Assembly (NCBI GenBank): GCA_052034745.1 | Contig: JBPOIF010000030.1 | Location: forward strand, 1 to 42,583 | Length of the DNA: 42,583 nucleotides | Origin: Candidatus Nomurabacteria bacterium | GTDB taxonomy: Bacteria > Patescibacteriota > Minisyncoccia > Phycocordibacterales > UBA9973 | Direction of reading: 5' to 3' | Shown: positions 6,151 to 41,707 of the stretch, piece by piece | Layout: each line of letters opens with the position of its first letter | Numbering within the stretch: the stretch's first letter is position 1 | Position numbers and translations under genes: made by a program | The notes under the pieces: generated by a model | The model's input: only the letters and a program-made list of their open reading frames with translations | What the model was told of the DNA's origin: nothing | Databases searched by the model: none

Positions 6151-6152
6151 AT

Positions 6153-25330: not shown

Positions 25331-25865
25331 AGCAACTGTGTTGTAATACTTGGCTTTCGTATTCGTCTCTATACTGCGTGGAAAATCCCGCGTTTATTTT
25401 GCACTATAAAACAAAAGGTTTTATACTGTATCCATCATAATGCACTGGTCCATTTCGGACTTTTGTGTTATTATGGTACCGTCTTTTGTTTTACGCAGAA
25501 GACAAACGTGGGAAACCACGACAGGAGTTTGATCGTTGAAAACAACATAGCGAATCCGCTGAAAGGGCCCCTCAAAAGACCCTTTCGCAAAACCGTTATT
25601 AGCTTTCGACGGTCGACTCTTTTTGTTTTTTGCAATCCTTTCTTTAGCGATAAAGGGAGGAAGTAGAAGACACGATATCGGCCCTGTCGACACGGCAGAT
25701 ACCATCTGGGTAGCACCAGGTGCATTCTGCGTTCTTACTTTTGTTTGTCATAGAGGATGATAAAGACCCTCTATGCGGACACAACGTCGTATTTCAGTAG
25801 TTTTGTCGAACTGCCCATACTGCCAAGTGTGGAAACGATACGTACGCATTAAAAACGATAAACAT

Positions 25866-27689
25866 ATGTCTATTAAAAATAAATTTTTCGTAGGCGCATT
25901 CGTTGCAGCTTTTGCTCTCGTAGCAAGCTCAGCTTCTGCTGCTTACATGCATTCTGTAACCCTTAAACAAGGTTCATCAGGTGCTCAAGTTACTTCACTC
26001 CAGACCACTCTTAACATGACTTCATGTAAAGTTGGTGCTGGTCTTGCAACTGGATACTTTGGTTCAATGACCAAGTCAGCTGTAATGTGTTTCCAAGCAC
26101 AAAATGGTCTCACTGCAGACGGCGTTGTTGGTCCTATGACCGGCATGAAGCTTGCAGGTGTTACCGGTTCAACTGGTTCAACCGGCGGATCAACTGGCGG
26201 TTCAACTGGATCATCAGTAACTCTCGCAGGAACTGATGGAACAATCTCAGATGTTAACGAACTTTCTACCTACAACAACGAAGAAGTTGGAGAAGGTCAG
26301 AGTGATGTAAAGGTTGCTGGATTTGAAGTTGAAGCTTCAAACGATGGTGACGTTCAAATCATTTCTGGAAAGGTCAGTTTTGCGCTTTCAAACGCATCAG
26401 GATCTGTTAAGCTCGATGACTATGTAGATTCTATTAAGGTATGGCACGGTTCAACCGAAATCGGTTCAGCTGATGCAGATGACTTTAACAAGGATTCAAC
26501 TGGTAACTACAGTAAGACAATCTCATTCTCAAACGCAGTTGTTAAGGCTGACGATACTGAGAAGTTTTATGTTTCTGTAGATGCTGTTAATACTTTTGAC
26601 AGTGGAGACATTGATTCAGAAGCTGTTACTATCGACGTTGAAAACCTCCGCTACAAGGATGGTTCAGGCGTTGTTACTACAGAGACTGGATATGACCTCG
26701 ACGGAATGGATGTTTCTATTGCCTTCGAATCATTCAGTACTGCTGCTGACACCGAACTTAAGGTCTCAGCTGCAACTGACAGTCCAGACGCTGGAATCGT
26801 AATGGTTGACGACAACGGAAGTACAACAGATGACGTTTCACTCCTTAAGGGTAAACTCAAGCTCGACGGTACTTCAGATGCTGTTCTTAACGAATTCCCT
26901 GTAACCTTCACCACCACCGGTACTGCAAGTATCGTTGCTGCAACAGGTTCAGTGAAGCTTGTTATTGACGGAGAAGACTACTCAGAGTCTGTTTCAGTTG
27001 GAGGTCAGACAGGTACTATCGTCTTCGATAACCTTGATCTCGATCTCTCAGCTGGTGACACCGTAAACTTCGAAGTTTTTGCTGATATCAATGATATCGA
27101 CGCATCAACTCTCGTTGCTGGTGACACTATCAAGGCTTCTGTGACTTCAACAAACGTAAGTCACATGGACATTGAGAACGAAGAAGGGGATCAGCTTGCT
27201 GATTCAACTGAAAAGTCAGGTTCTGCTACTGGTGAGGCACAAGAACTCCGCGCAAGTGGAATCTCTCTTACCCTCGTAAGTACAGATGAAGCTGCTTCAA
27301 CAGGAAGTAGTTCAAACGATGATTCAGGAACATTTACTCTCAAGTTCAAAGTAACTGCAGTAGGAGATGACGTATACCTCGGAACAACTGTTTCTCAAGG
27401 ATTCACATACGCTGTTGACGCTTCAGGTACTGCAACTACATTCAACGTTTCAGCTGTTGTTGTAAACAACACTGACACTGATGTAACTTCACAAGGTAAC
27501 TACCTTATCGAAGACGGACAAAGTGAAACATTTACTTTGACTGTTGTTCGAAATGCTGGTGCTGCTGGACTCTTCCGAGCTAGCCTCACAGGCGTGAAGT
27601 GGGATACAAGTGATGCAGACACAACCATGTCTAACACTTACTCTTCAAACCTTGATACATTCAAGACTGATTACCTCAACTTGAACTAA
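25866..27689 (+). CDS. Secreted surface (S-layer-like) protein with N-terminal peptidoglycan-binding domain
   Basis: Signal peptide MSIKNKFFVGAFVAAFALVASSASA; PG_binding_1-like LKQGSSGAQVTSLQTTLN...GYFGSMTKSAVMCFQAQNGLTADGVVGPMT; a (GST)n linker. About 450 aa of acidic S/T/D/V/G-rich sequence follows, with no Cys and very few basic residues, and with strongly biased codon use (Ser almost always TCA). Start moved from 25773 to ATG 25866 at the signal peptide. Confidence 0.8.
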   Translation: MSIKNKFFVGAFVAAFALVASSASAAYMHSVTLKQGSSGAQVTSLQTTLNMTSCKVGAGLATGYFGSMTKSAVMCFQAQNGLTADGVVGPMTGMKLAGVTGSTGSTGGSTGGSTGSSVTLAGTDGTISDVNELSTYNNEEVGEGQSDVKVAGFEVEASNDGDVQIISGKVSFALSNASGSVKLDDYVDSIKVWHGSTEIGSADADDFNKDSTGNYSKTISFSNAVVKADDTEKFYVSVDAVNTFDSGDIDSEAVTIDVENLRYKDGSGVVTTETGYDLDGMDVSIAFESFSTAADTELKVSAATDSPDAGIVMVDDNGSTTDDVSLLKGKLKLDGTSDAVLNEFPVTFTTTGTASIVAATGSVKLVIDGEDYSESVSVGGQTGTIVFDNLDLDLSAGDTVNFEVFADINDIDASTLVAGDTIKASVTSTNVSHMDIENEEGDQLADSTEKSGSATGEAQELRASGISLTLVSTDEAASTGSSSNDDSGTFTLKFKVTAVGDDVYLGTTVSQGFTYAVDASGTATTFNVSAVVVNNTDTDVTSQGNYLIEDGQSETFTLTVVRNAGAAGLFRASLTGVKWDTSDADTTMSNTYSSNLDTFKTDYLNLN

Positions 27690-27726
27690 CCTCGGTTTGA
27701 CAGCTTCGGCTGTTACCCAAGCAATG

Positions 27727-27755
27727 ACCGCCCCGAAAGGGGCGGTTTTGCTTTG
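27727..27755 (+). terminator. Rho-independent terminator after the surface-protein gene
   Basis: ACCGCCCC-GAAA-GGGGCGGT followed by TTTGCTTTG. Confidence 0.8.
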
Positions 27756-27781
27756 TCTGGTTTTCTCCGTATAATCTAGGA

Positions 27782-29803
27782 ATGTTTTTAACCATACAAA
27801 AAAGCACTTTTTTGAAGGTACTTGAATGGGGGCTGTATATATTTATCGCGCTATTTCCGTTTATTCTGTATCCAGGGTATGTGTTCAATGGGACATCTAC
27901 TCGGGCAATAAATCTGATAATTTTTGTTGAGATTTTTGCGGTTGCACTGGGGGCTCTCTTGTTTCAAAAGAGTTCAAAGTTCAGTGTCGCAAAATCACCA
28001 ATCACTATCGGACTGCTCTCTCTCCTTGTTGTTCTGTTCGCTACGTCTTTTTTTGGGGTTGATTTTGCGACCTCGTTCTGGTCAAAAGCAACACGAATGT
28101 CGGGGTTGTTTTATCTCCTCCATCTCGGAATTTTCTATTTGTTTTTGATGATGGTCTTTCGAGATGAAAAGAAGCAGAGAAATTTTATAAAAGTCTTTCT
28201 CTTTTCGACCGCTCTCTTTTCGATCGGAGCACTTCTTTCAAAAGAGGGGTGGGGTATGTTGTTTACAACGAAGCCTTGGGTAGGGCTCACTTTCGGAAAC
28301 TCAACGTTCGCCGCGATGTATCTTTTTGCGGGATTTCTTTTGTCGATCTACTATGTCTCGTCTCTTCCACAAGAGAAAAAAGTTTGGTGGAACTATCTGT
28401 TTCCTGTTGTTTTTGTGCTCAATCCATTTATTATCAGCCAGGATGCTCTCCTTGGGAAAGTAAATCTGTTCCAAAACCCAATTGGATTTATTGGAAGTGC
28501 GAACGCAACATCTCTCACGGTACTCTTTTCAGTAGTACTTTTGTTTGGTTTTTGGCTTCTTTCAAAGATAAAGAGTGCGACTTTTCGAAGAGGTGTTGTC
28601 CGAGGAAGCGTGGTCCTTGGTTTTGTGGGGGCGTATGTTGTCTTTCACTCCCTTCTTTCTCCTGGTGGGGCACTTCGAGATCTTTATCTGAAACAGGCGA
28701 CAGAAGCTCGTCCTATTCTTTGGAGTCTTTCTCAGAAAGCAATTGAGAGCCGACCATTATTTGGATGGGGTGGCGATAACTTTGATCGCGCACTGAACGC
28801 GTACTACGACAATAGACTCCTTGAGGATGCAAAAGGAGGTGAGGGGTGGTTCGACAGAGCGCACAATATCTTTATCGACCAGACGGTTGATTCGGGGTAT
28901 ATGGGTGTGACAGTGTATCTTTTGGTGTATATCGTTGTCTTTCTTTCTTTGGTATCAGTTATTTTGCATGCTCGGGAAAGGAAGGATCAGATACTCGCAG
29001 TTATTCTCATTACTTATTTTGGGGGGCACCTCCTTGAGCTTCAGACCGCATTTGAAACTACTATTTCATATGTCGCATTGGTTGTGATGGCGGCACTTTC
29101 GGCAACGCTTTACCACAAGGTTCGACAGCAGCGTGTTGGTCAAAGTGGGGAGTGGGAAGTTCCTCTTTTTGTGAAATATGCTTTCGGCATCGTTTTGGTG
29201 GGGCTTTTCGGAGCGTTGTTTTTTATCGGCACTGTTCCTCTTGTGAGATCTCAAAATGCTCATGGTGCGCTTGCAATTGCAGGGACGAGTACAAAGCGTC
29301 TTCCCTTGTATGAAAAGCTTTTTTCTTCGCCACTTGATGAGGCGGCGCTTCTCCATCGAATCTTTTTTGGACTTCAAGAGGGGATATCGATGAAGCCCTC
29401 AATCATAGAAGACGCGAAGAGGAGAGAGGGGTTTGTAAAAGAGTTTGAAGGGCTTGTTGGTTATTACAGTGACTATATAGCAAAAAATCCTGAAGATTAT
29501 CGCGCTCACCTTGAATTTGCGGAACTTTGTATCTATATACGGCTGTTTGATGTTGATCGTCTTACGCAGGCACATACGATCCTCGACGAAGCTATCTCTA
29601 TTGTTCCACAAGCACCACAGGCACATTGGCTCAAGTCGGTCGCATATCTGTACCAAGGTAAATTTAAAGACGCTCGTGAGTCCGCAAAGCGCGCGTATGA
29701 TATCAATCCAAACATAGAAGAGAGCAAACGCGTCGTCGACTATATTGACCGTTCGATTCGAGATTTTCCAGAGATTGATTTGTTTGCGTTCAAAAAGATA
29801 TAG
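27782..29803 (+). CDS. Wzy_C / O-antigen ligase-like polytopic membrane protein with C-terminal TPR domain
   Basis: More than 10 TM segments; periplasmic-loop signature WGGDNFDRALNAYYD...RAHNIFIDQTVDSGYMGV; C-terminal soluble TPR-like repeats (EDYRAHLEFAELCIY, AHWLKSVAYLYQGKFKDARESAKRAYDINP). Confidence 0.8.
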   Translation: MFLTIQKSTFLKVLEWGLYIFIALFPFILYPGYVFNGTSTRAINLIIFVEIFAVALGALLFQKSSKFSVAKSPITIGLLSLLVVLFATSFFGVDFATSFWSKATRMSGLFYLLHLGIFYLFLMMVFRDEKKQRNFIKVFLFSTALFSIGALLSKEGWGMLFTTKPWVGLTFGNSTFAAMYLFAGFLLSIYYVSSLPQEKKVWWNYLFPVVFVLNPFIISQDALLGKVNLFQNPIGFIGSANATSLTVLFSVVLLFGFWLLSKIKSATFRRGVVRGSVVLGFVGAYVVFHSLLSPGGALRDLYLKQATEARPILWSLSQKAIESRPLFGWGGDNFDRALNAYYDNRLLEDAKGGEGWFDRAHNIFIDQTVDSGYMGVTVYLLVYIVVFLSLVSVILHARERKDQILAVILITYFGGHLLELQTAFETTISYVALVVMAALSATLYHKVRQQRVGQSGEWEVPLFVKYAFGIVLVGLFGALFFIGTVPLVRSQNAHGALAIAGTSTKRLPLYEKLFSSPLDEAALLHRIFFGLQEGISMKPSIIEDAKRREGFVKEFEGLVGYYSDYIAKNPEDYRAHLEFAELCIYIRLFDVDRLTQAHTILDEAISIVPQAPQAHWLKSVAYLYQGKFKDARESAKRAYDINPNIEESKRVVDYIDRSIRDFPEIDLFAFKKI

Positions 29804-29810
29804 CACTTGT

Positions 29811-30779
29811 ATGGAAAAACAAACAACATATCTCGTAACAGGATCGGCAGGGTTTATAGGGTTTCATACTGCAAAAAAGATGCTCGAAAAAGGAGCTCGT
29901 GTTATTGGGGTTGATAACTTCAATAGTTATTATGATGTTGCTTTAAAAGAAGCGCGAAATGGTGAACTCGAAAAGTTCCCACATTTTACGCTCTATAGAG
30001 GTACTATTGCCGATGTTGATTTTGTGAGAAAAGTTTTTTCAGAAAATACAATAGATACAGTGTGTCACCTTGCCGCGCAGGCGGGTGTTCGCTACAGCAT
30101 CAAAGAGCCTTATCGGTATGTCGAAACCAATCTTGTGGGGTTTGTAAATGTATTGAATGAGGCAAAAGAAAAAGGAGTAAAGAATTTTGTCTTTGCCTCT
30201 TCGAGTTCTGTGTATGGACAGGCAGAGGCCGCTCCTTTTTTGGAGACTGCTTCTTGTGACAAACCGCTTTCTCTCTATGCTGCAACAAAGAAATCAAATG
30301 AGCTCATGGCATATACGTATCATCATCTTTTCGGGATGAATTGCATGGGGCTTCGGTTCTTCACAGTGTATGGTCCATGGGGCAGGCCCGATATGGCGAT
30401 GGTTTCATTTACCAAAGCCATTTATGAGGGCTCTTCTATCGGTGTATTTAACAATGGGGATATGAAGCGCGACTTTACCTACATTGATGACATTGTCGAT
30501 GGTGTTATTGCTGCATGTGAGCATCCTTTCCCATTTGAAATAATAAATCTCGGAAACAACAATCCTGTGCAACTCGCAGCCATGATAGAGACTCTCGAAA
30601 AGGAAATTGGAAAATCTGCAGTAAAAGAATTTTTGCCTATGCAGCCAGGAGATGTACTGGAGACGTATGCCGATAGTACAAAAGCTCAGGAAAAGCTTGG
30701 GTGGACACCAAAGACGAACCTCGAAGAGGGGGTGAGAAAATTTGTTGCATGGTATCGCCTCTATTATGGAGAAAAATAA
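29811..30779 (+). CDS. NAD-dependent sugar-nucleotide epimerase (UDP-glucuronate 4-epimerase-like SDR)
   Basis: VTGSAGFIGFH (GxxGxxG), DNFNSYYDVALKEAR, ASSSSVYG and YAATKKSNE (YxxxK). Start set at ATG 29811 (MEKQTTYLVTG). Confidence 0.85.
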   Translation: MEKQTTYLVTGSAGFIGFHTAKKMLEKGARVIGVDNFNSYYDVALKEARNGELEKFPHFTLYRGTIADVDFVRKVFSENTIDTVCHLAAQAGVRYSIKEPYRYVETNLVGFVNVLNEAKEKGVKNFVFASSSSVYGQAEAAPFLETASCDKPLSLYAATKKSNELMAYTYHHLFGMNCMGLRFFTVYGPWGRPDMAMVSFTKAIYEGSSIGVFNNGDMKRDFTYIDDIVDGVIAACEHPFPFEIINLGNNNPVQLAAMIETLEKEIGKSAVKEFLPMQPGDVLETYADSTKAQEKLGWTPKTNLEEGVRKFVAWYRLYYGEK

Positions 30780-30786
30780 TCAAATC

Positions 30787-31902
30787 ATGACAATGCTCGC
30801 CAATCATAATTTTGCCTTCTTTTTTACTCGAGGACTTTCTCTGTCTCGATGGGAAAAGCTCGGGATGCTCCAGCGTGAAATCAAGCTATATCAAAAACTC
30901 GCAGAGGTATTTCATACGGTATATCTTTTTACGTATGGCGTGAGTGAGGCTGCTTTGTATCAAAAGTATTTTCCGGAGAACGTCGTTATTGTCTCAAGGC
31001 CGTCGTATATCCCCGTGCTGCTTTATAGTTTTCTCCTCCCTCTTTTACACCGAAAGAAGCTCCGGAACGTTTCTTTTTTGAAAACAAATCAAATGGATGG
31101 AAGTTGGACTGCGGTTATTGCAAAAAAGATATCCAAAGCAAAACTTATTGTTCGCTGTGGGTACGAATGGCTCTTTACGCTTGAAAACCTCAAAAAGTCA
31201 TACTTCAAAAGAAAAATAGCTTTTTGGGTAGAGCGATGTGCATATCGAAATGCGGATACAATCGTCATGACGGCAGAGCCTGCCGTGAATTTTGTGCACG
31301 ATCGTTTTGGGATACCGTTTGAAAAAATGAGGATCATTCCAAACTACGTTGACACAGAACTTTTTAAACCAGCGGATAATGTATCGAAAGAAAAACAAGT
31401 TCTTTTTGTGGGGAGATTTGAAAAAGAAAAAAACATCTTGGCGCTTGTGGATGCGATGCAGGATATCGGCGCACCACTTGTTCTTGTTGGTGCGGGGAGT
31501 ATGAAAGAAATTATCGCTCATCGAGCAGAGGAAAGAGGAGTTACTGTTTTGTTTCGAGGTACTATTGCTCACCAAGCACTTGTTTCTGAGATGCAAAAAA
31601 CAGCTGTTTTTGTCCTCCTTTCACTGTACGAAGGAAATCCAAAGGTCTTGCTTGAGGCGATGGCGTGCGGTGCGCCATGTGTCGGGTCGAATGTTTCTGG
31701 GATAAGAGAGATTATTACTGATGGGGACGACGGATTTTTGTCGGGTACGGATAGTCAATCAATCCACAGAGTACTGAGTCTTCTTGTTAACAACACCGCA
31801 CTACAGGCTACGCTTGGGAAAAATGCTCGAGAAAAAGTACTCGCTACATACAGCCTCGAAAGGATTTTACAATCTGAGCTTTCAGTCTATAATGCACTTT
31901 AA
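30787..31902 (+). CDS. Glycosyltransferase family 4 (GT-B)
   Basis: C-terminal GT1/GT4 signature FVLLSLYEGNPKVLLEAMACGAPCVGSNVSGIREII. Start set at ATG 30787; ATG 30766 is also possible. Confidence 0.8.
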   Translation: MTMLANHNFAFFFTRGLSLSRWEKLGMLQREIKLYQKLAEVFHTVYLFTYGVSEAALYQKYFPENVVIVSRPSYIPVLLYSFLLPLLHRKKLRNVSFLKTNQMDGSWTAVIAKKISKAKLIVRCGYEWLFTLENLKKSYFKRKIAFWVERCAYRNADTIVMTAEPAVNFVHDRFGIPFEKMRIIPNYVDTELFKPADNVSKEKQVLFVGRFEKEKNILALVDAMQDIGAPLVLVGAGSMKEIIAHRAEERGVTVLFRGTIAHQALVSEMQKTAVFVLLSLYEGNPKVLLEAMACGAPCVGSNVSGIREIITDGDDGFLSGTDSQSIHRVLSLLVNNTALQATLGKNAREKVLATYSLERILQSELSVYNAL

Positions 31903-32540
31903 TGAAGAAAAACATATATAAAATACTATTACGATATTCTCTAAAGCTCAGCAATTTCCTCTACAAATTGATTAGTTTTCTTGCAATAAAATACGAAGGA
32001 GGAATTCACCCCAAACATCGACTGCTCGGATATCATGATTTTTTTATCAACAATATCCGCAATGGAGATACTGTTCTTGATATTGGTTGTGGAAATGGAG
32101 CGCTTTCTTTTGACATAGCGAAAAAGGCAAAAGAAGTGACAGGGATAGATATAGAAGAAAAGAATATTAAAGAGGCAAAAAAGAAACATAGCCTTACAAA
32201 TCTTACCTATATAGTTGGTGACGCAACAAAGGATTTGGGAGAAAAAAAGTTTGATGTTATTACGCTCTCAAATGTTTTAGAGCATATAGAATATCGCGTC
32301 GATTTTTTAAAGAGCATTAAAGGGCTTGCGAGCACGTACTTGATCAGGGTTCCTATGTTTGATCGTGACTGGATACCACTGTATAAGAAGGAGTTGGGTA
32401 TCGAATGGCGACTTGATCTTACTCACTATACAGAGTTTACGAAGCAGACATTTGAGAAAGAAGTTACTGAAGCAGGGTACACTATCAATAGTCTGAGTGT
32501 GCAGTTTGGTGAGATTTGGGCGGTGATTACTGTTCAATAG
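31902..32540 (+). CDS. Class I SAM-dependent methyltransferase
   Basis: VLDIGCGNGALS (motif I), GIDIEE, FDVITLSNVLEHIE. Confidence 0.8.
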   Translation: MKKNIYKILLRYSLKLSNFLYKLISFLAIKYEGGIHPKHRLLGYHDFFINNIRNGDTVLDIGCGNGALSFDIAKKAKEVTGIDIEEKNIKEAKKKHSLTNLTYIVGDATKDLGEKKFDVITLSNVLEHIEYRVDFLKSIKGLASTYLIRVPMFDRDWIPLYKKELGIEWRLDLTHYTEFTKQTFEKEVTEAGYTINSLSVQFGEIWAVITVQ

Positions 32541-32545
32541 AAATT

Positions 32546-33508
32546 ATGAAAACATACCGTTTTATCATTGCATTGTTCGGGAACAAGCATGTAGGGATGC
32601 TTCTTACCAACCTGTACTCGATTAAGGAAAATGCACCAAGAGCTTCTGTCACTGTCTTGTGGCAAGACGTTGACCCCAAAACGAAAGAAGACCTTCAAAA
32701 AGTATTTCCGGAGGTAGATTTTCAGGAGATCAACTTTGATATATCTTCAGACAAAATCAAAAGAATTTCTAGCAAGATGTTATTTTGGAATTATGCAGTT
32801 TCCAAGTTTAAAGGCGAACAACTTTGCCTCGTCGATGTCGACACATTGATCTTAAAAGACATCGGCGATTTTTTTGAGGAAGATTTTGATATTTTGTTCA
32901 CCGATAAAAAAGAAGAGATATTCCCATTGAACACAGGGGTTATGCTTTGTAAGGGTGAAAAAAGTCACATTTTTTTTGAAAAATGGATGCAAACAACAAT
33001 TGAAATCCTAAGCGATGAAACACTGATTCATCAAGCCATGAGTACGCAGTATCCTTTTGGTGGTGGGGATCAAATGTCGTTTTATAACCTCGTAGAATAT
33101 ACAAAAGAAAAAAGTACGTTTGAAGTGACCATAGGTGATCAGCCGATTCGGCTGGTTTCAAAGCCGTGCGCGCTCCTCAACGAAACTCGATCAACAATTA
33201 TATCCCCAATGACTCATATCGTTCACTATAAAGGTGGGTGGCAGATGGTAATGCTTGAAGGTGAAGATTTTACGAGGAATCGGTCAAAAAAAGACTCTTG
33301 GGAGATGTATCTGCTCTATCTCAATACTCACAAACAAGCACTCAATTATTTAAATACTCACGCAAAAACTCATTATGAGTTTGGTTCATTTGGTATACAG
33401 ATTCCTTGCTATCTCGACAAAATACACCTAAAAGAAAACAAGGTTCGTTATTTCTTTTTTCATATGTATTCGTTGATAAAAAGAATTATCAAATTTTTAA
33501 AAATATGA
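32546..33508 (+). CDS. GT-A fold glycosyltransferase, GT8-like (DxD)
   Basis: LCLVDVDTLILKD (DxD) and LNTGVMLCKG resemble GT8 / nucleotide-diphospho-sugar transferases. Start set at ATG 32546. Confidence 0.55.
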   Translation: MKTYRFIIALFGNKHVGMLLTNLYSIKENAPRASVTVLWQDVDPKTKEDLQKVFPEVDFQEINFDISSDKIKRISSKMLFWNYAVSKFKGEQLCLVDVDTLILKDIGDFFEEDFDILFTDKKEEIFPLNTGVMLCKGEKSHIFFEKWMQTTIEILSDETLIHQAMSTQYPFGGGDQMSFYNLVEYTKEKSTFEVTIGDQPIRLVSKPCALLNETRSTIISPMTHIVHYKGGWQMVMLEGEDFTRNRSKKDSWEMYLLYLNTHKQALNYLNTHAKTHYEFGSFGIQIPCYLDKIHLKENKVRYFFFHMYSLIKRIIKFLKI

Positions 33509-34419
33509 AAATTTTTATTTCACAAAAAGTGCAATCTGGTCCTTGGGGTGGGGGAAACCAATTTTTGAAAGCATTGAGAGGAGGATTTGCCAAGAAAAAC
33601 GTGCATACCGAATCTTTTACTGAGGCAACCGTTGTATTGTTTGATAGTTATCAAAATATCTTTGGGTTGTTACAATGTTGGTTTTTCAATAACAAAAAGA
33701 TACGAGTGTATCGTCTCGGCCCGATATTCCACCTCCACAGGAGTTGGAAGTGGAGGATCATTGATGTAGCAGTTGTTATTGTTGCAAATATTTGTGCTGA
33801 TGTGGTTATTTTCCAGTCGCAGTGGTCATACCAACAAACCCAGAAACTTGGCTTTTGGAAAGGTAAGAAAAAGCACGTCATTACAAATGCTGTCGATACT
33901 GCAGTCTTTTTTGAGAAAGCGCATGTTGGTGGGGATACGGTAGGGCCAATACAGTTGGTATATACCAGTTGGTCATCAAACAAAAATAAAGGCTTTGAAT
34001 ATTTGAGCTTCTTAGACGAACGCCTTGATTTTCAAAAGTACCAGTTTACTTTTATAGGAAATACTTCAATCATATTTAAAAACATTAAAACGATACCACC
34101 GCTGTCGAGCGGTGAACTTGCTGATGAACTGCGAAAAAGAGATATCTTTGTTTCTCCGGTAAAAGATGATGCATGTTCAAATGCTATTTTAGAAGCACTC
34201 GCGTGCGGACTTCCTGTTGTCGCTCTCAATAGTGGAGGAAACCCTGAGATTGTTGGGGAAGGTGGGGCATTATTTGATAACGAACAGGAAATGCTAGAAA
34301 AGATCGATACGGTAGCGAAAGATATTTCATCTTATCGGAATAAGATTAGTGTTAAAAATATCGATACGGTAGCGCAAGAGTATGTAGATGCTATCCGTGC
34401 TAGTATCAAAAATGTATGA
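33505..34419 (+). CDS. Glycosyltransferase, GT-B (GT4-like)
   Basis: C-terminal CSNAILEALACGLPVVALNSGGNPEIVGEGG. An ATGA start/stop overlap with the upstream gene supports the start at 33505. Confidence 0.7.
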   Translation: MKIFISQKVQSGPWGGGNQFLKALRGGFAKKNVHTESFTEATVVLFDSYQNIFGLLQCWFFNNKKIRVYRLGPIFHLHRSWKWRIIDVAVVIVANICADVVIFQSQWSYQQTQKLGFWKGKKKHVITNAVDTAVFFEKAHVGGDTVGPIQLVYTSWSSNKNKGFEYLSFLDERLDFQKYQFTFIGNTSIIFKNIKTIPPLSSGELADELRKRDIFVSPVKDDACSNAILEALACGLPVVALNSGGNPEIVGEGGALFDNEQEMLEKIDTVAKDISSYRNKISVKNIDTVAQEYVDAIRASIKNV

Positions 34420-35039
34420 CGACCATTCTTGATCATATTAAAAAATCCCCCCACCGGAACCGTCTTGAAGGATATCTCAAGACGATACTTCCGACTCTCC
34501 AGGGACCGATTCTTGATATTGGCTCAAGGAACAGACGATACGATGCGCTGATGCCTGAGACACCCACCGCAATCGATATTGTTGAGCAGAAAGAAAAGAA
34601 TGTGCTCTATGGTGACGTGATGAACCTTTCTTTTCCTGAGGGTTCATTTCAATCTGTCACGTGTCTTGAAGTGCTTGAGTATGTCGATAATCCACAGCAA
34701 GCAATCGATGAGATGCGTCGTGTTATGAAAAAAGGGGGAGTGCTTGTACTTTCAGTCCCATTTTTGTTTCGAGCTCATGATGACAAGTTCCGGTATACCG
34801 CATCCCAGTTAAAAGGAATGCTTCACCGTTTTGAGATAAACTCTTTTGATTCTGTCGGAGGAGGTTTTGTTGTGATACTCACGGTCCTTTGGAATAAGAT
34901 AAAAAAGATTGGCTTTGCGCCATTTCGATATGGAGGCCTTTTGCTTTTGTTGCCAGCGCTTTTGTGCATTCGAAAGACAACAATCAAGAGTGAAGAGTAC
35001 GCGTCTGGATATATTGTTGTTGCTAAAAAAAGAGTATGA
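34416..35039 (+). CDS. Class I SAM-dependent methyltransferase (Methyltransf_11-like) with C-terminal hydrophobic tail
   Basis: ILDIGSRN, FQSVTCLEVLEYVDNPQQAIDEMRRVMKKGGVLVLSVP. Confidence 0.75.
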   Translation: MTTILDHIKKSPHRNRLEGYLKTILPTLQGPILDIGSRNRRYDALMPETPTAIDIVEQKEKNVLYGDVMNLSFPEGSFQSVTCLEVLEYVDNPQQAIDEMRRVMKKGGVLVLSVPFLFRAHDDKFRYTASQLKGMLHRFEINSFDSVGGGFVVILTVLWNKIKKIGFAPFRYGGLLLLLPALLCIRKTTIKSEEYASGYIVVAKKRV

Positions 35040-35785
35040 CAAAGATTTTTCGCATAGACGACATCGGGGCTTCAACCAAGCACTTCAATCAGCATGGGAA
35101 AAAGAGAGTGCGATTGTTTGGGTGTATCCCATTTTATTTTCCATTTGCGAATGTTTGGTTTTTTAAACGAATGGAACCATTTCGTGGATGGGCAGTGTAT
35201 GATGAGCTGACAAAAGATGAATGGGGTTCAGTTCTTGCTGTTTTTGCAAAGCACAGTATTGTTCCTGTTGTTGCGATCACTGCGACATGGGTTGAGCGAG
35301 AGGGAACACTTGTTCCTTTTCATGAAAAATTTCCAGAAGAAGCGCAACTCTTGAAACGAGCATTTATGGAGGGGAAGATAATTGTTGCAAACCATGGACT
35401 GACACATTGTGTTGTCGGGAAGCATCACCCGCGATTTTGGTCTTCGAATCGGAAGTTTCATAGAGAGTTTCTTCCTGATTTGGATGAGTTTTGGCATCGT
35501 GAGCATATAGCGAAATCGCAGGAAATTTTAGAAAACTTCTTTGAGAAACCTGTTGAAATATTGGTACCACCTGGTAATATGTGGAGCGTAAAGACCTATA
35601 AGGCAATTCACGGGTCACATCTGAAAAAAGTGATGTGTAGTACCCCTATGCTCGACTCAGATGCGCCTTTGGAAGGGGTACAGTTTATCAAAGACAATAA
35701 CGAGGTAGTAGCATTTCATGATAGAGAGCTCAAGCTGTATGGAGTACAATGGCTCGAGCAGTTAATCAAAAAACACCATGACTGA
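35036..35785 (+). CDS. Polysaccharide deacetylase-like (DUF2334/CE4-like) protein
   Basis: FRIDDIG, ANHGLTHC and LVPPGNMW resemble the DUF2334 / carbohydrate-esterase pattern. Weak, by eye only. Confidence 0.45.
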   Translation: MTKIFRIDDIGASTKHFNQHGKKRVRLFGCIPFYFPFANVWFFKRMEPFRGWAVYDELTKDEWGSVLAVFAKHSIVPVVAITATWVEREGTLVPFHEKFPEEAQLLKRAFMEGKIIVANHGLTHCVVGKHHPRFWSSNRKFHREFLPDLDEFWHREHIAKSQEILENFFEKPVEILVPPGNMWSVKTYKAIHGSHLKKVMCSTPMLDSDAPLEGVQFIKDNNEVVAFHDRELKLYGVQWLEQLIKKHHD

Positions 35786-36566
35786 TCAATTAAGGGAAAA
35801 AATTATAGCCTACTACACGACATACTATCGAGATGAGTGCTCATTGCCTGATTGGGAAGCTCGGGCCCATGCTCGTCTTACAGAAGAAGAAACTGAAAAA
35901 GTGCGCATGCATACGCTTGTTCAAGATTTTGGTTTTGATATGCGTGGCAAGAAACATCTCCTGGTAGGGGCGGGGACAGGGGGGCTCGCGGTCACTCTCA
36001 AAAACGAGTATGGTGCGTATCCATATGGAGTAGAACCAGAGACTCGAGAGCATGAAATTATTCTTCTCAAATGCCAGGAACACGGTATCGATCCTACTCA
36101 CTTCAAACTTGCCTATGGAGAAGCACTTCCTTTTGAAAACGAAACGTTTGATTTTGTGCACTGTTTTACAGTGCTTGAGCATGTGCGTGATGTAGAAAAG
36201 TGTATTGATGAAATGATTCGCGTGGTACGCCCTACCGGGAGAATCATTATCAATACTCCCAACTATGCTTACCCGTATGAAAAGCATTACAAGATATATT
36301 TCCCTACATTTCTCCCAAAGTTTTTGGGGTATGTCTACCTCTTCCTTCTTGGAAAAAACAGAAAATTCTACGCATCCATCAATACATTTACTGAGAGAGA
36401 TCTTAACAAGATTTTTGTAAAAAAGCAGGGAATACGGTGGTATCGAATATATGATGCAAAGAAAAGAGAGAAAGGAAAGGTGGGTTTTTTGGTCAATTAC
36501 TTATTTTTCAAAAGATTTGTGTACCCACAGCAAAATATAGTTATCTTAAAAGTTTTACCGGAATGA
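35778..36566 (+). CDS. Class I SAM-dependent methyltransferase
   Basis: LLVGAGTGGLA, FDFVHCFTVLEHVRDVEKCIDEMIRVVRPTGRIIINTPN. Confidence 0.78.
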   Translation: MTDQLREKIIAYYTTYYRDECSLPDWEARAHARLTEEETEKVRMHTLVQDFGFDMRGKKHLLVGAGTGGLAVTLKNEYGAYPYGVEPETREHEIILLKCQEHGIDPTHFKLAYGEALPFENETFDFVHCFTVLEHVRDVEKCIDEMIRVVRPTGRIIINTPNYAYPYEKHYKIYFPTFLPKFLGYVYLFLLGKNRKFYASINTFTERDLNKIFVKKQGIRWYRIYDAKKREKGKVGFLVNYLFFKRFVYPQQNIVILKVLPE

Positions 36567-37363
36567 AACCAAAAATATCATTAATAATAGGTGTCTATAA
36601 TGGTGCAGGAAAACTTCGTGAATCATTGGACAGTATCCTCTCACAGACCTTTTCTGATTTTGAAATAGTTATTGTTAACGATGCTTCTACTGACGAAACA
36701 GCTACTGTACTTAGCGAGTATGCTGTACGTGATACCCGAATAAAGATAATCATAAACGAGAAAAATTTTGGGCTTACAAAATCTCTCAACCGAGGAATTA
36801 TTGCATCTTCAGGCGACTACATTGCTCGCATGGATAATGGAGATATTTCATATCCTGCACGTTTTGAAAAACAGGTAGCGTTTCTTGATACTCACAAAGA
36901 GTATTGTATGGTTGGCTCATTTGCTAATCTTACAAACGATGCATCTGTTGTTATCGGAGTATTACAATATCCAGCAACAAATGAAGAGATTGTTAGAAAA
37001 TTGATACGACACAATTTATTTGTTCACTCTTCAGTAATGATGCGCCGAAGCATTCTTGAAGAAGTGGGATTTTATAATGAAGCTTGGAGGTACGCTCAGG
37101 ATTACGAACTTTTTTTTCGTATGATTCAAAAAGGAAAGGTTGCAAATATAGCAGAACCGCTTGTCTCATATCGAATATCTGAAGAATCTATTACGAAAAG
37201 CAAAAACAAGAAACAAGTTATGTTTGCCATTCGAGCTCGGCAAGAGGCGATTCGAAGGGGGCAGTATAGTATCTTTACTACCATATTCCTTATCCCTCCG
37301 TTTATAGGGTATTTGCTTCCCTATGGAGTCAAAGGAAAGATAAAAAAGATTTTCCATATATGA
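36563..37363 (+). CDS. Glycosyltransferase family 2
   Basis: ISLIIGVYNGAGKLRESLDSILSQTFSDFEIVIVNDASTDET and ARMDNGDIS (DxD-type). Confidence 0.88.
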   Translation: MKPKISLIIGVYNGAGKLRESLDSILSQTFSDFEIVIVNDASTDETATVLSEYAVRDTRIKIIINEKNFGLTKSLNRGIIASSGDYIARMDNGDISYPARFEKQVAFLDTHKEYCMVGSFANLTNDASVVIGVLQYPATNEEIVRKLIRHNLFVHSSVMMRRSILEEVGFYNEAWRYAQDYELFFRMIQKGKVANIAEPLVSYRISEESITKSKNKKQVMFAIRARQEAIRRGQYSIFTTIFLIPPFIGYLLPYGVKGKIKKIFHI

Positions 37364-38460
37364 AGATACTCTATACGATAACAAAAGCAGAAATAGGTGG
37401 TGCACAAACACACACCCTCCACCTTATGAGAGCAATGGTTGAGAAAGGGGATCAGGTAGCGCTCATGACACAGCCAAATGGATGGCTTGTTGATGAAGCA
37501 AAAAAAATAGGAGTTCATGTTTTTTCAAACCCTTACCTAACCAACAGAATTACTCTATGGTCAGTTATAAGGGCCTTTGGTGTAGTTCGCACCACAGTAA
37601 AAAAATGGAATCCTGACATAGTTTCTTGTCATAGTAGTGTAGCGGGAGCGATTACCCGTCTTGCTGTTGGTAGGTGTGTTCCTACTGTCTATACAGCTCA
37701 CGGATGGGCATTTACTGAGAAAGCACCTTTCTTAAGAAGAGTACTCGCTGTCATTTCTGAAACAATACTCGCTTTTTTTACGAATGAAATAATCTGTGTT
37801 TCTGAGTGTGATCGAACGCTTGCCCTTAAGTATAAAATCGTAAAAAAAGAAAAGATAACGGTTATTTATAATGCAGTACCTTCTCGCGGAGTAGTAAGTA
37901 CTCATCAAAATGAGCGAGTTCAGTTTATAAGTCTAGGGAGACTCGCATACCCAAAAGAGTGTCTTTTGTTAGCTGAGGTATTTGCAGGGCTTTCTGCTGC
38001 ATATAAAAAACAGGCACAGTTGCTGTTTGTTGGGGATGGTCCTCTTAGAGAAAATTTGGAACGTATAGTAGAGAGGACTAATTCTAAAGATAGTATTACG
38101 ATAGCAGGTACCATTCCTTATGATCGGATAAGTGAAGTGTTGGGGCGGTCAGATTGTCTTGTTCTTGTTTCAAAACATGAAGGGTTTCCAATGGTTATTT
38201 TGGAGGCAATGGATGCACACCTTCCAGTGATCGCTTCTCTTGTGGGCGGTATTCCAGAAATTGTTACCTCTGAAAATGGTATTTTAGTTGAAAATACTAA
38301 GGTTTCTTTGCAAAACGCGTTAGAACAACTCATTGCTAATAAAACAAAAATATCAGGACTTGGTGCACGTGCGTTTAATACGGTTTCAACAAAGTTTTCT
38401 TTTGATACTTTTGTACAAAAAACACAAGAAGTCTACCAAAGGGTTACTCTTGGATCTTGA
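37360..38460 (+). CDS. Glycosyltransferase family 4
   Basis: N-terminal GGAQTH and C-terminal LVLVSKHEGFPMVILEAMDAHLPVIASLVGGIPEIV. Confidence 0.85.
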   Translation: MKILYTITKAEIGGAQTHTLHLMRAMVEKGDQVALMTQPNGWLVDEAKKIGVHVFSNPYLTNRITLWSVIRAFGVVRTTVKKWNPDIVSCHSSVAGAITRLAVGRCVPTVYTAHGWAFTEKAPFLRRVLAVISETILAFFTNEIICVSECDRTLALKYKIVKKEKITVIYNAVPSRGVVSTHQNERVQFISLGRLAYPKECLLLAEVFAGLSAAYKKQAQLLFVGDGPLRENLERIVERTNSKDSITIAGTIPYDRISEVLGRSDCLVLVSKHEGFPMVILEAMDAHLPVIASLVGGIPEIVTSENGILVENTKVSLQNALEQLIANKTKISGLGARAFNTVSTKFSFDTFVQKTQEVYQRVTLGS

Positions 38461-39898
38461 GTGATTTTCTTAGTTCAATAACGGTGTTTTCTTTTTGTAT
38501 AAAGAGGAGTGTGACGTAGATACAACACGAAACGATGATAATCAGAATAAGAGGGGTAGAAACATGAAGCATGCTCGTAGTGGCTATACCCATGATTAAA
38601 ACAGCAAAAAGAGGTTTGTAAGGTTTTGTGATAATAGGAACTTTTTGTGTTTTTCTCATTTCGATATAAAAGATGAACATTAGAACTGCCTGGGCAATTA
38701 TTGTTGCTATTGCGGAACCACTAATTCCAAATTTTGGAATGAGTAGAAAGTTAAGCCCTACATTTAAGAATGCCCCAATAATTCCTGTAAGAATAAAAAT
38801 TTTTTGTTTATTTTCTGCAAGGAGAACTTCTGCATATATTGTTGCGGGAAACAGAAACAAAGCTGTAATTAAGAGTAGTTGAAATGCTGGGATTGCTTCT
38901 CTGTAGGAACTTCCAAAGACGGTAAAGATGATTGATGGCGCGGTAATGATACCACCAACCACAAGAGGGAGTGCTACAACAAGAGATGCGGTCGATGCAG
39001 TACTTACGATGTGTTTGATAGATTGTTTGTTTTTTATGAACGCACTCATCACAGGAAGTAGTCCTGATGCGAGAAAATTGGGGAGTATGTAAATGATACT
39101 TATTGGTTTTTGAGCAGCTCCGTAAAGCCCAACAAAATGTTCGTTGGTGAGCCATCCAACCATAATAGAATCAATATTTGTCATAAAAATTCCAAAAATA
39201 CTAAGTATTGCAAAAGGAAGCACTAGTTTTATTAATGGAATAACGAGGGTCTTTGAAAAGAATCTGTGTATTGAAACAATGTATTTTCTCGTTGTAAAAA
39301 GAGCGATTAACAATCCGAGACCGTTTCCTATGGTAAATGAATATACCAGAGTTTGAGCAGAGGGGTCCCTAAGAAAGAGGATGATAATAAGAGCGACACA
39401 AAACATCTCGTTTAAGAGTCCGATTCCTGCTTCAGTTTCCATTTTGTTTTTTGATCGAGGTATCGAGTATAGGAAACTTCGAAGGCTATCAAAAAAAATA
39501 GATAGAGCCACAATAGGAATAAGTGTTGTCGATGCTTCAAATTTTGAAACAAAAGGGCCGATGCTGAGTATAAGAAGTACTGTTGTTATTAAAAAGCCGA
39601 TTTTGATAATAAAGGCTGTTGAAAAATATTCTTTTGTTTTGTCAGAGTTTTTTGAAAGCTCTCGAACAAGAATACTCGAAATGCCCATGTCTGAAAACAC
39701 AGCAAAAAGGGCTGCGATACTCATCGCGTAAGTAAAAATACCATATGATTCTGTACCCAAGAGCCGTGCCGCGTACATAATAATAACCGCTCGGATAATT
39801 TTTATAAGTGTTGTACTTACGCCAATCCAGAGCGTGTTTTTAATAACAATTTGTCTTGTTGAGATATTATTAAAAAGAAATTTTTTAATTGTCGACAT
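38444..39898 (-). CDS. wzx: Wzx-type polysaccharide flippase (MOP superfamily)
   Basis: 484 aa, about 12-14 TM, with a typical N-terminus (NTLWIGVSTTLIKIIRAVIIMYAARLLGTESYGIF). Its 3' end overlaps the convergent GT4 gene by 17 nt. Confidence 0.82.
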   Translation of the reverse strand: MSTIKKFLFNNISTRQIVIKNTLWIGVSTTLIKIIRAVIIMYAARLLGTESYGIFTYAMSIAALFAVFSDMGISSILVRELSKNSDKTKEYFSTAFIIKIGFLITTVLLILSIGPFVSKFEASTTLIPIVALSIFFDSLRSFLYSIPRSKNKMETEAGIGLLNEMFCVALIIILFLRDPSAQTLVYSFTIGNGLGLLIALFTTRKYIVSIHRFFSKTLVIPLIKLVLPFAILSIFGIFMTNIDSIMVGWLTNEHFVGLYGAAQKPISIIYILPNFLASGLLPVMSAFIKNKQSIKHIVSTASTASLVVALPLVVGGIITAPSIIFTVFGSSYREAIPAFQLLLITALFLFPATIYAEVLLAENKQKIFILTGIIGAFLNVGLNFLLIPKFGISGSAIATIIAQAVLMFIFYIEMRKTQKVPIITKPYKPLFAVLIMGIATTSMLHVSTPLILIIIVSCCIYVTLLFIQKENTVIELRKSLKIQE

Positions 39899-39904
39899 AG
39901 ATAC

Positions 39905-41200
39905 TTAGTGTGTGAAAATAATCTGTACGGTTTTTAGTAAGATACCAAGATCAAGAAGAGGGTTTTTATGAGCGATGTAGTAGAGATCGTATTCGAGTTT
40001 TTCTTTTGAGTCGAGTACAGTGCGTGCATACCGAAACTTGATCTGTGCCCATCCGGTAAATCCAGGACGGACGCTATGTCTGAGGTTGTAGTAGGGGATC
40101 TGCGTTTCGAGATCGCGGACAATTTCTGGTCGTTCTGGCCGAGGTCCAACGAGTGCGATGTCTCCACGGATAATGTTCCACATCTGGGGAATCTCGTCGA
40201 GATGGAGTTTTCGGATAATTTTTCCTACTCTTGTGGTGCGATTGTCGTTTTGAGTTGCCCATTGAGCGCCGTTTTTCTCTGCATCGGTGCGCATTGAACG
40301 AAGTTTCAAGATATTGAATTGTTTCCCGTTTTTTCCGGTGCGTATCTGCCGGTAGAAAAAAGGTCTCCCATCTTCGAGGGCAATCGCAATGATTGCAATC
40401 AAAAGAAATGGCGAAGCAAGAAGAAGGATGAGGTAGGCGATGAGTATTTCAAACAGGCGGCCAAGACGCTGCCCGCCTATCGAAGGCTGGCGATTGAGGA
40501 GGGTGATGGCTTGAGTATCATTTATAAGAGAAAGTGGAATCTTTCCAAAAAGCTCTTCGTACGCGCCTGAGAGGGACAGTGTCTGTGCTCCGATAGTATT
40601 GCGAAGAAGGAGGAGTGTTTCAAGAGGGAGCCCATCAGTGATCACGAGATGGACAGGGGGAATAGCTGTTTCTTTGGTATAGGTGTCCTGGTGAAAAACA
40701 ACAGTGCCGATATGAGGATTGCGAGCAAGGTCCTCAAGCAGGTGGGTGACAGTTTCTCCGTGTCCAATGACGGCGATGTGTTGTCGATACAGTGATGCAA
40801 AGAGTTTATAAAATGCTCGACGCCATAGTACCAAAAGTGCAAAAGATGACACCGCGATAATAAGGAGGTTTGTCTTTGGAGTAATTCCGTTGTTCGGGAA
40901 GAGGTAAAAAAGAATAATAGAGACAACAGTACTCGTTCCAATTGCTAGTGCAAGACGTCCGATATTGCGAGGGTTTGGGTTGATACGTCTGAGGTTATAA
41001 AGTTCAAAAATAAAAAAGAGGACAAACCAGAGTGTAAAAATAGGCACAAATACTCGTGCTTGTGTGCGGACGAAAGAACCATTTGCATACGGTGCAAATC
41101 GAATGAGCACCATTATCCAAAATGATGCTGCGACTGCGAGGATATCCCCGACAAGGAGGGCGAGTGCACGGTCTTTGAGCATGGGAAAATTATATAACAT
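39905..41200 (-). CDS. Polyprenyl-phosphate hexose-1-phosphate transferase (WbaP/WsaP-like initiating sugar transferase)
   Basis: N-terminal TM segments plus the C-terminal Bac_transf signature KFRSMR...DEIPQMWNIIRGDIALVGPRPERPE...RPGFTGWAQI. Confidence 0.9.
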   Translation of the reverse strand: MLYNFPMLKDRALALLVGDILAVAASFWIMVLIRFAPYANGSFVRTQARVFVPIFTLWFVLFFIFELYNLRRINPNPRNIGRLALAIGTSTVVSIILFYLFPNNGITPKTNLLIIAVSSFALLVLWRRAFYKLFASLYRQHIAVIGHGETVTHLLEDLARNPHIGTVVFHQDTYTKETAIPPVHLVITDGLPLETLLLLRNTIGAQTLSLSGAYEELFGKIPLSLINDTQAITLLNRQPSIGGQRLGRLFEILIAYLILLLASPFLLIAIIAIALEDGRPFFYRQIRTGKNGKQFNILKLRSMRTDAEKNGAQWATQNDNRTTRVGKIIRKLHLDEIPQMWNIIRGDIALVGPRPERPEIVRDLETQIPYYNLRHSVRPGFTGWAQIKFRYARTVLDSKEKLEYDLYYIAHKNPLLDLGILLKTVQIIFTH

Positions 41201-41278: not shown

Positions 41279-41707
41279 ATGAACAAAAAGAACATGGTTA
41301 TTTCAGGAGCGCTTATTGTTGTCGTGCTTGCGGCGCTTATCGTAGCACCACGACTTCGCAACAGTGCAAAAGATGAGGTTGTTGAACAGGAAGTGGCAGC
41401 ACTTGCAAGTACTGCAAATGTTGAAACAGTCGCGCTTTCTCGTGCTGATGCACAAGTAAAGTATGCAAATGCGACACTTCGTTTTTCTGGAGAGACCTGT
41501 ACGCTCCAAGGAGAAGAAATGACTCAGCCAAAATACACAACCATTATGATAGACAACGACACTGACGCTCGTCGTACTATTGGAGTCGGAGCAAAGTCTT
41601 ACAACGTTGGACCACGTCGCTACACGCTCTCGTGGCTCAATGCGGACTCTGGTGAGCTTGCCGTTACTTGTGACGGAAAGGAGGTAGGAACTGTTGTTGT
41701 TCAATAA
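41279..41707 (+). CDS. Small membrane-anchored/secreted hypothetical protein
   Basis: N-terminal TM/signal anchor MVISGALIVVVLAALIVAP followed by a roughly 110-aa soluble domain with two Cys. Start uncertain (TTG 41222, ATG 41246, ATG 41279). Confidence 0.55.
   Translation: MNKKNMVISGALIVVVLAALIVAPRLRNSAKDEVVEQEVAALASTANVETVALSRADAQVKYANATLRFSGETCTLQGEEMTQPKYTTIMIDNDTDARRTIGVGAKSYNVGPRRYTLSWLNADSGELAVTCDGKEVGTVVVQ

Follow-up and report, generated by a model that had tools for sequence, protein, structure and literature searches.

Which molecule receives the glycan assembled by an envelope locus of a Candidatus Nomurabacteria bacterium? The question was raised by a contig of 42,583 nucleotides (JBPOIF010000030.1 of assembly GCA_052034745.1), which was analysed as a whole and is referred to as the window. 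In the region 25866-41200 the gene of a secreted protein with a peptidoglycan (PG)-binding domain, SURF, is followed by the gene of a membrane protein combining a Wzy_C domain with tetratricopeptide repeats (TPR), WZYC, and by genes for glycan assembly. All close homologues stem from metagenome-assembled genomes of Patescibacteria/Paceibacterota, in agreement with the placement in the Candidate Phyla Radiation (CPR) considered in the first-pass annotation of this DNA. According to Castelle et al., envelope formation and structure 'remain unclear' for all CPR studied so far, and a glycosylated S-layer was speculated from glycosyltransferase counts (PMC5220378). Our reading, to which we give somewhat less than an even chance, is that SURF, WZYC and the exchangeable glycan genes would constitute a module for the O-glycosylation of proteins by block transfer, of the kind known for PglL and WsfB. 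It rests on the adjacency of the two genes and on the architecture, topology and conserved residues of the enzyme.

A profile scan of species-representative genomes yielded a first set of 54 loci with WZYC orthologues of 39-51% identity, and each of them (54/54) has SURF as the immediate upstream neighbour of WZYC, with both genes on one strand. The two genes were separated by gaps of 33-202 nt in 40 loci and by one inserted gene in 12; among the inserts are an IS200 transposase and a further Wzy_C paralogue. Two loci were truncated or broken. A second scan, seeded with one sub-cluster of more distant homologues, added 23 loci with cluster-B relatives of WZYC from the Kaiser-, Adler-, Wolfe- and Harrisonbacteria lineages. 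Upstream DNA is available for 22 of these closer loci; SURF adjoins WZYC in 19 of them and was found 3.5 kb upstream in one more. Furthermore, six very divergent orthologues (23-30% identity) keep the adjacency in the same FtsK-DeoR context. Overall, SURF and WZYC are same-strand neighbours in about 80 species-level genomes of Paceibacteria. The first-pass annotation had proposed to look for relatives that possess the Wzy_C gene without an adjacent surface protein; in view of these counts, the gene almost never lacks SURF directly upstream within the orthologous group, and for this group the objection therefore fails. The pair belongs to a wider syntenic block with the order EF-P, RecA, FtsK (minus strand), DeoR-like gene, SURF, WZYC, a variable segment and rplJ.

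This synteny also supports a second explanation, according to which WZYC is a general O-oligosaccharyltransferase (O-OTase), SURF is one of its substrates or none, and the adjacency is left over from a gene order that has been frozen in a reduced genome. The entire FtsK-DeoR-SURF-WZYC-rplJ block is syntenic, loci devoid of glycan genes encode other secreted proteins at the site following WZYC, and PglL systems are known to be general (PMC3643930). However, PglL-type genes usually adjoin their principal target, 21 of 31 being located beside pilin genes (PMC3643930). We consider this explanation rather improbable, and it is compatible with block transfer to proteins in every respect except the status of SURF.

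The enzyme itself is predicted to belong to the WaaL/PglL superfamily. Wzy_C (PF04932) was matched marginally in the window copy (33.1 bits, cut-off 31.7) and in 35 of 35 aligned family members (best 3e-17), and C-terminal TPR repeats are present (TPR_16/TPR_2 in Pfam). According to the literature, WsfB, an S-layer O-OTase, and PglL share the Wzy_C-TPR architecture described in the first-pass annotation; for WsaB, a TPR protein is encoded just upstream (PMC2943079). With the AlphaFold2 (AF2) model of WZYC (pLDDT 87, pTM 0.88), Foldseek gave WaaL as top match in the PDB (7TPG, E 2.3e-5, TM 0.57), spanning the membrane core only, followed by TPR proteins and FtsW. The positive-inside rule places the N terminus inside and predicts 13 transmembrane (TM) helices, with K+R making up 30% of the short inside loops versus 8% outside. 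In this topology the catalytic loop and the TPR domain (Table 1) are both located outside the membrane. The structure prediction that had been suggested earlier gives a WaaL-like fold with both functional parts facing outwards. The TPR domain is conserved to the same degree as the catalytic core. Membership in the SEDS family (FtsW/RodA), raised by FtsW among the fold matches, was rejected in view of the Wzy_C assignment by Pfam and of the catalytic His loop, which is WaaL-like.

The putative active-site residues were compared with those of WaaL and PglL. In an hhalign comparison the DRAHN motif of WZYC (H361) pairs with HLHN of E. coli WaaL (H338), in a short and weak alignment with a probability of 1%. 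R310 is located 51 residues before H361, and R288 of WaaL 50 residues before H338; because the alignment is short and weak, the correspondence of the two arginines rests on this spacing. R310, P325, G328, G330, H361 and N362 are invariant even among homologues of 21-30% identity. Compared by published positions, R310/P325/G328/G330/H361 have the same spacing as R298/P313/G316/G318/H349 of PglL from N. meningitidis, and H416/E419 resemble H400/E404 with a spacing of 3 rather than 4. The GxG pair (G316, G318) was described as PglL-specific, as were H400, E404 and P406 in N. meningitidis (PMC3643930).

The candidate acceptor SURF possesses a signal peptide of the Sec type, and Pfam detects PG_binding_1 at aa 38-92 (45.9 bits). 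The remaining ~500 aa matched no Pfam family, and no described S-layer protein family was matched in Pfam, NCBIfam or PDB. The gene had been described as strongly codon-biased and its product as acidic and rich in Ser and Thr; these labels are now measured. The effective number of codons (Nc) is 38.5, compared to 44-60 in every other gene of the window for more than 150 aa, and the protein has a pI of 4.05, an S+T content of 24.5% and a K+R content of 4.9%. In the AF2 model of the 608-aa protein (mean pLDDT 83), a helical PG-binding domain, a disordered linker and three predicted beta-sandwich domains follow each other. Foldseek returned only generic matches, namely strings of Ig-like domains, integrin legs and Gram-positive adhesins. 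Among the properties of S-layer proteins, a secretion signal, acidity and a wall anchor are present in SURF; the anchor is PG_binding_1, neither SLH nor CWB2. The codon bias and the strong terminator suggest that SURF is abundant, and together with composition and linker they make it a candidate for the major wall protein.

The linker is hypervariable among 38 homologues and consists of poly-T, G/S/T, P/N or N/D stretches or of short Cys-loop modules, with a median S+T content of ~40%. The sequon of Bacteroidota, D(S/T)(A/I/L/V/M/T), occurs 6 times in SURF compared to 6.4 expected occurrences and is thus not enriched. In many homologues the linker (alignment columns ~200-290) contains short modules bounded by Cys, either one or two of them, e.g. 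PGCTAGAMFSSTTGQSC or CPAGYTC, which may be disulfide mini-loops; they are absent from the SURF of the window.

Several known systems share features with this locus. In the WsfB/SpaA S-layer glycosylation (slg) system of Paenibacillus alvei CCM 2051T, the transferase likewise combines, by its published description, Wzy_C with a C-terminal TPR domain. Furthermore, P. alvei is a monoderm, its system modifies an abundant protein that is secreted and wall-associated, for which SURF is the candidate here, the glycan on the lipid carrier is begun by a WbaP-type Gal-1-P transferase, and the cluster genes have a low G+C content. Unlike in the P. alvei system, SURF is anchored by PG_binding_1, and WsfB glycosylates Tyr instead of the Ser/Thr proposed here. 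The slg cluster of Geobacillus stearothermophilus NRS 2004/3a also comprises a WbaP-like protein (WsaP), a Wzy_C transferase (WsaB) and O-methyltransferase activity, and it was mapped together with the S-layer gene sgsE. However, the TPR protein of Geobacillus is separate (WsaA, 168 aa), whereas the TPR domain of WZYC is fused, and the slg cluster is polycistronic and depends on an ABC transporter, whereas in the present case a terminator of its own follows SURF and the content of the cassette varies. In Firmicute slg systems long polymers are exported by ABC transporters; in this locus a Wzx flippase is present and a polymerase candidate is lacking. Pfam revealed no Wzm/Wzt ABC-transporter genes in the window, with the Wzx/MOP flippase present instead.

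The PglL/PilO systems of Gram-negative bacteria resemble the proposed role of WZYC in that the glycan is transferred en bloc from undecaprenyl pyrophosphate (Und-PP) after flipping by Wzx. The gene usually adjoins the main target, the R/P/GxG/H residues have identical spacing, and TPR were noted in PglL. The targets of PglL/PilO are low-complexity segments rich in S, A and P. Beside the PglL_A domain, which is considered below, the differences are that the acceptor proposed here is not a pilin, that the host is a monoderm CPR bacterium, and that WZYC possesses 13 TM helices and a large TPR domain of 170 aa.

WaaL, the best structural match with an aligned catalytic His motif (H361/H338), uses lipid A-core as acceptor, and the compared WaaL sequences of 403 (7TPG) to 419 (E. 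coli) residues have neither a TPR domain nor a 13th helix. Castelle et al. reported that genes for lipid A and LPS are missing from a Parcubacterium (PMC5220378). The first-pass annotation had concluded from the expected lack of lipid A that a protein acceptor becomes more likely. This conclusion is not supported, as it overlooks a precedent for glycolipid acceptors in monoderms: TacL of Streptococcus pneumoniae is, like WZYC, an enzyme of the O-antigen-ligase family and acts outside the membrane of a monoderm (PMC5727136). It differs from the role proposed for WZYC by its glycolipid acceptor, and Pfam scans detected no genes for teichoic acids or glycolipid anchors in the window. To our knowledge, neither adjacency to a surface-protein gene nor a TPR domain is known for TacL.

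WZYC might therefore also be a ligase for a non-protein acceptor, transferring the Und-PP-linked glycan to a membrane glycolipid as TacL does or to a cell-wall polymer. A lipoglycan or a polysaccharide of the wall would result, and SURF would be a neighbouring envelope protein that possibly binds the polymer or the wall. We regard this as unlikely. The best structural match, WaaL, is a lipid-acceptor ligase, the use of glycolipid acceptors by O-antigen-ligase-like enzymes of monoderms is exemplified by TacL (PMC5727136), and a Glyphos_transf gene of the teichoic-acid type occurs in one related cluster. In addition, SURF and WZYC are transcribed separately and do not co-diverge. However, the conserved, outward-facing TPR domain is a feature reported for the protein O-OTases WsfB and PglL and is absent from the compared WaaL sequences, and the GxG motif of WZYC has the spacing of PglL. 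The adjacency to SURF is moreover kept in ~80 genomes while the downstream side rearranges freely, and the window lacks the anchor and teichoic-acid genes mentioned above.

The downstream side was described in the first-pass annotation as a complete glycan locus and part of the system. As a conserved element this did not stand: glycan genes adjoin WZYC in 17 loci of the first set, about one third, their content is lineage-specific, and they are absent in 11 loci. The slot between WZYC and rplJ contains differing glycan clusters, other surface-protein genes or nothing. In about 19 loci it holds other secreted proteins (PKD, LTD, beta-helix, LCAT-like, PsbP-like, PG_binding_1). Homologues of the GT4 glycosyltransferase (GT) and methyltransferase of the window follow WZYC in the nearest relatives only; in other lineages unrelated sets of GT1/GT4, methyltransferase, epimerase and deacetylase genes occur at this position. 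Homologues of the polysaccharide-deacetylase-like protein recur in related clusters. A contig of 583 kb carries a cassette of ~19 kb, which again closes with WbaP, a small secreted protein and rplJ/rplL. The central glycan genes of the window have a G+C content of 0.36-0.42 compared to 0.44-0.50 in the flanks; a low G+C content of central, strain-specific genes was likewise reported for Firmicute slg clusters. WZYC is kept at 40-50% identity beside unrelated glycan clusters and where no cluster adjoins, and no polymerase-specific family of Pfam or NCBIfam was matched by it. This retention independent of the cassette fits a donor-tolerant transferase.

The same data bear on a further explanation, in which WZYC is the Wzy polymerase of a Wzx/Wzy-dependent polysaccharide made by the downstream locus and another enzyme attaches the product to the cell. 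The locus encodes Wzx and a WbaP-like initiating enzyme, and a topology check revealed no glycan-locus protein besides WZYC and Wzx that is polytopic enough for a separate Wzy polymerase. Pfam Wzy_C also covers many polymerases. WZYC identity is 48% between loci sharing a cluster type and 42% otherwise, at similar RecA identity and in small samples, and four distant paralogues are located beside Wzz/PCP chain-length genes. Polymerases, however, normally travel and vary with their own cluster, whereas WZYC keeps its length and sequence whether it adjoins an unrelated cluster or no cluster at all, and its fixed partner is SURF rather than the glycan genes. WZYC also keeps the His and Arg set of ligases and OTases, Pfam scans found no Wzz gene in the window, and the missing match to polymerase families mentioned above argues in the same direction. 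The polymerase function is thus considered very improbable.

The distant relatives of WZYC show a different picture. An exhaustive profile search gave 1,175 clusters at 50% identity (E <= 1e-30), most of them of full length with ~650-700 aa. The neighbours of paralogues without SURF are Bac_transf (16), murB (12), Wzz/PCP (4), sugar-nucleotide enzymes and GTs; the proximity to WbaP, murB and Wzz instead of SURF-like proteins speaks for ligation to a non-protein acceptor. Bac_transf is located directly upstream of the paralogue in 16 loci, in many of them on the opposite strand, and murB directly downstream in 12 of the distant loci L162-L217. In some Patescibacteria (loci L174, L213, L215 and L217, e.g. 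L217 5263-11301) two or three distant Wzy_C-TPR paralogues are arranged in tandem, which suggests several transferases differing in donor or acceptor specificity. In one lineage (L014 4022-5866) the gene inserted between SURF and WZYC encodes a Wzy_C paralogue of 614 aa, which is 23% identical to WZYC over ~600 aa. The Wzy_C-TPR family as a whole probably handles lipid-linked glycans, and only the orthologous group of WZYC appears tied to SURF.

If WZYC glycosylates SURF, the following course can be proposed. On the inner side of the membrane, the WbaP-like enzyme would begin an oligosaccharide with undecaprenyl phosphate as carrier, four or five GTs would extend it, methyltransferases and the deacetylase would decorate it, and Wzx would flip it outwards. 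WZYC would then move the glycan en bloc from the lipid carrier to Ser/Thr residues of a secreted protein, using elements located outside the membrane, i.e. R310, GWG328-330, DRAHN358-362 and the C-terminal TPR domain, the latter presumably holding the acceptor. The main acceptor would be the adjacent, presumably highly expressed and PG-anchored SURF, and the likeliest target site its disordered S/T/G/P linker between wall anchor and beta-sandwiches. SURF and WZYC would represent a conserved core, and the exchangeable cassette between WZYC and rplJ would provide lineage-specific surface glycans. Gene content, predicted folds and topology, conserved residues, conserved adjacency and variability of the cassette are shown by the analysis; donor, acceptor, glycosylation site and the status of SURF as an S-layer protein are inferred from them.

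Several results weigh against glycosylation of SURF by WZYC. The adjacency could be explained by inherited gene order alone because the pair is part of the deeply conserved FtsK(-)-DeoR-SURF-WZYC-[variable]-rplJ block. The divergence of SURF and WZYC is uncorrelated (Spearman -0.18), so that this mirror-tree style test was uninformative. A predicted terminator hairpin (dG -14 to -26 kcal/mol) with a T-rich tail follows the SURF equivalent in 40/40 short-gap loci; with this strong, conserved terminator between them, SURF and WZYC are separate transcription units by sequence and not an operon. PglL_A (PF15864), the model separating PglL from WaaL, was matched by 0/35 members of the WZYC family at E <= 1. 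The sequence similarity to WaaL is marginal as well (E 0.064 in a PDB search with the full-length profile); with an alignment of the TM domain only the WaaL match was lost, and it was recovered by the full-length profile and the fold search only. About 50 loci contain paralogues of the same architecture (22-29% identity) without SURF, and therefore the Wzy_C-TPR family as a whole is not dedicated to SURF. In the 11 loci without adjacent glycan genes, rplJ follows ~0.3-1.1 kb after WZYC. Some SURF homologues have N/D- or P/N-rich linkers, so that this region is not always rich in S/T, and glycosylation as well as lattice formation of SURF are hypothetical properties. The O-glycosylation of a surface protein as originally proposed is supported by the conserved adjacency and by the architecture and topology of the enzyme; a conserved complete locus and the lipid A argument were not supported.

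Further signals were detected around the pair. A perfect TATAAT box ends 6 nt ahead of the ATG of WZYC (27770-27784), and the spacing leaves no usable Shine-Dalgarno sequence; the mRNA from which WZYC is translated may be leaderless or may stem from read-through of the terminator. A near-palindrome of 26 bp upstream of SURF (Table 1) is found once in each of 11 related loci, in the corresponding position and with 1-5 substitutions. It may serve the DeoR-like protein as operator or be an element of the 5'-UTR. A homologue of the DeoR-like protein is found in the same position in ~45 of the 54 first-set loci and again in the second set, and this protein is a candidate regulator. Rfam gave no match anywhere in the window, the 535 nt preceding SURF included. 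In one locus (L050 6651-11431), SURF is fragmented and WZYC is stopped at aa 476 before the TPR domain, the neighbouring FtsK being intact; this could be due to joint decay of the pair or to indel errors of the assembly.

The gene calls in the region 25866-41200 are based on an open reading frame (ORF) listing and on Pfam and NCBIfam scans, by which every gene listed in the first-pass annotation was found at its position (Table 1). Of the five GTs named there, four have family support. The fifth (32546-33508) has none, as it matched nothing in Pfam, NCBIfam or PDB; a DxD/NTGVM-like motif is the sole feature by which it is possibly a GT. The WbaP-like protein exceeded the cut-off of NCBIfam TIGR03025 with 320 bits.

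Table 1. Positions of the genes, domains and signals at the SURF-WZYC locus in the window.
Feature	Position (nt)	Strand	Residues	Basis and remarks
DeoR-type HTH protein	24677-25330	+		Pfam HTH_DeoR aa 158-204; directly upstream of SURF, conserved
26-bp near-palindrome TATCGGCCCTGTCGACACGGCAGATA	25676-25701			165 nt 5' of SURF start
SURF, secreted PG-anchored acidic surface protein, candidate glycan acceptor	25866-27689	+		Pfam, codon bias, AF2
SURF signal peptide	25866-25940		1-25	Sec-type
SURF PG_binding_1 helical domain	25953-26168		30-101	
SURF disordered G/S/T linker	26169-26216		102-117	
SURF three beta-sandwich domains	26223-27686		120-607	
Intrinsic terminator after SURF, GACCGCCCC-GAAA-GGGGCGGTT then T tract	27726-27747	+		Terminator scan
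WZYC, predicted WaaL/PglL-superfamily membrane glycan transferase, 13 TM helices	27782-29803	+		Pfam, AF2, Foldseek
WZYC extracytoplasmic catalytic loop	28658-28897		293-372	H361 codon 28862-28864
WZYC extracytoplasmic TPR domain	29279-29800		~500-673	
NAD-dependent nucleotide-sugar epimerase/dehydratase	29811-30779	+		Pfam Epimerase 5.7e-56; nearest NCBIfam GalE, below cut-off
GT4 glycosyltransferase	30787-31902	+		Glycos_transf_1 3.3e-31; start codon checked
SAM methyltransferase 1	31902-32540	+		Methyltransf_31/11
Soluble protein, possibly GT-A glycosyltransferase	32546-33508	+		DxD-like motif, inference alone
GT1-family glycosyltransferase	33505-34419	+		Glyco_trans_1_4 3.9e-14, C-terminal half only
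SAM methyltransferase 2	34416-35039	+		Methyltransf_11 2.4e-13
Polysaccharide-deacetylase-like protein	35036-35785	+		Polysacc_deac_1, weak: 28.5 bits, cut-off 23.1
SAM methyltransferase 3	35778-36566	+		Methyltransf_11 8.7e-17
GT2 glycosyltransferase	36563-37363	+		Glycos_transf_2 8.3e-31
Second GT4 glycosyltransferase	37360-38460	+		Glycos_transf_1 1e-29, Glyco_transf_4 7e-24
Wzx/MOP-family flippase, predicted, lipid-linked oligosaccharide	38444-39898	-		Polysacc_synt 2.9e-31; ~12-14 TM helices
WbaP-like polyprenyl-phosphate hexose-1-phosphate transferase, predicted initiating enzyme	39905-41200	-		Bac_transf 1.2e-62

Beside these genes, the window encodes a second acidic protein rich in S/T (20%) with a weak match to DUF11 repeats (10888-12774), which may likewise be located at the surface and represent an additional potential target of glycosylation. 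A small secreted or membrane-anchored protein of 142 aa without family match is encoded between WbaP and rplJ (41279-41707). Its Nc of 37.9 indicates a codon bias like that of SURF, and in the 583-kb relative this slot is taken by a protein of comparable size (L058 5391-5900). At 6126-9614 an isoleucyl-tRNA synthetase is encoded that carries a His_Phos_1 histidine-phosphatase insertion (aa 518-682) within the catalytic domain.

In the literature on Patescibacteria and Parcubacteria no paper describing the SURF-WZYC pair was found. The mechanism considered here is known from slg and PglL systems; the enzyme subfamily, the acceptor family and the host radiation would be new, as would the layout of a conserved core with a swappable cassette at a fixed site. 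A still wider reading, which we regard as doubtful, comprises three parts. The first is a 'surface glycoprotein core' throughout the class Paceibacteria, i.e. a vertically inherited, abundant and PG-anchored wall or S-layer protein with three beta-sandwiches together with its own TPR-bearing O-oligosaccharyltransferase. The second is the slot between WZYC and rplJ as a hot spot at which glycan cassettes or extra surface proteins are exchanged, and the third is a large, CPR-specific expansion of Wzy_C-TPR paralogues that would serve other glycoconjugates of the envelope. In this wider reading, the exchange of cassettes would result in a serotype-like variation of the CPR cell surface, which could govern attachment to the host and the recognition of phages or hosts.

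The composition of the envelope of CPR bacteria or Patescibacteria is an acknowledged gap, and this locus offers concrete, class-wide candidates for a major wall protein, for the enzyme that would glycosylate it, and for a defined variable site that would diversify the surface. If the proposed function is correct, O-glycosylation by block transfer would be extended to a new radiation at the phylum level, and WZYC would represent a new, possibly donor-tolerant family of O-OTases with a built-in acceptor-binding domain.

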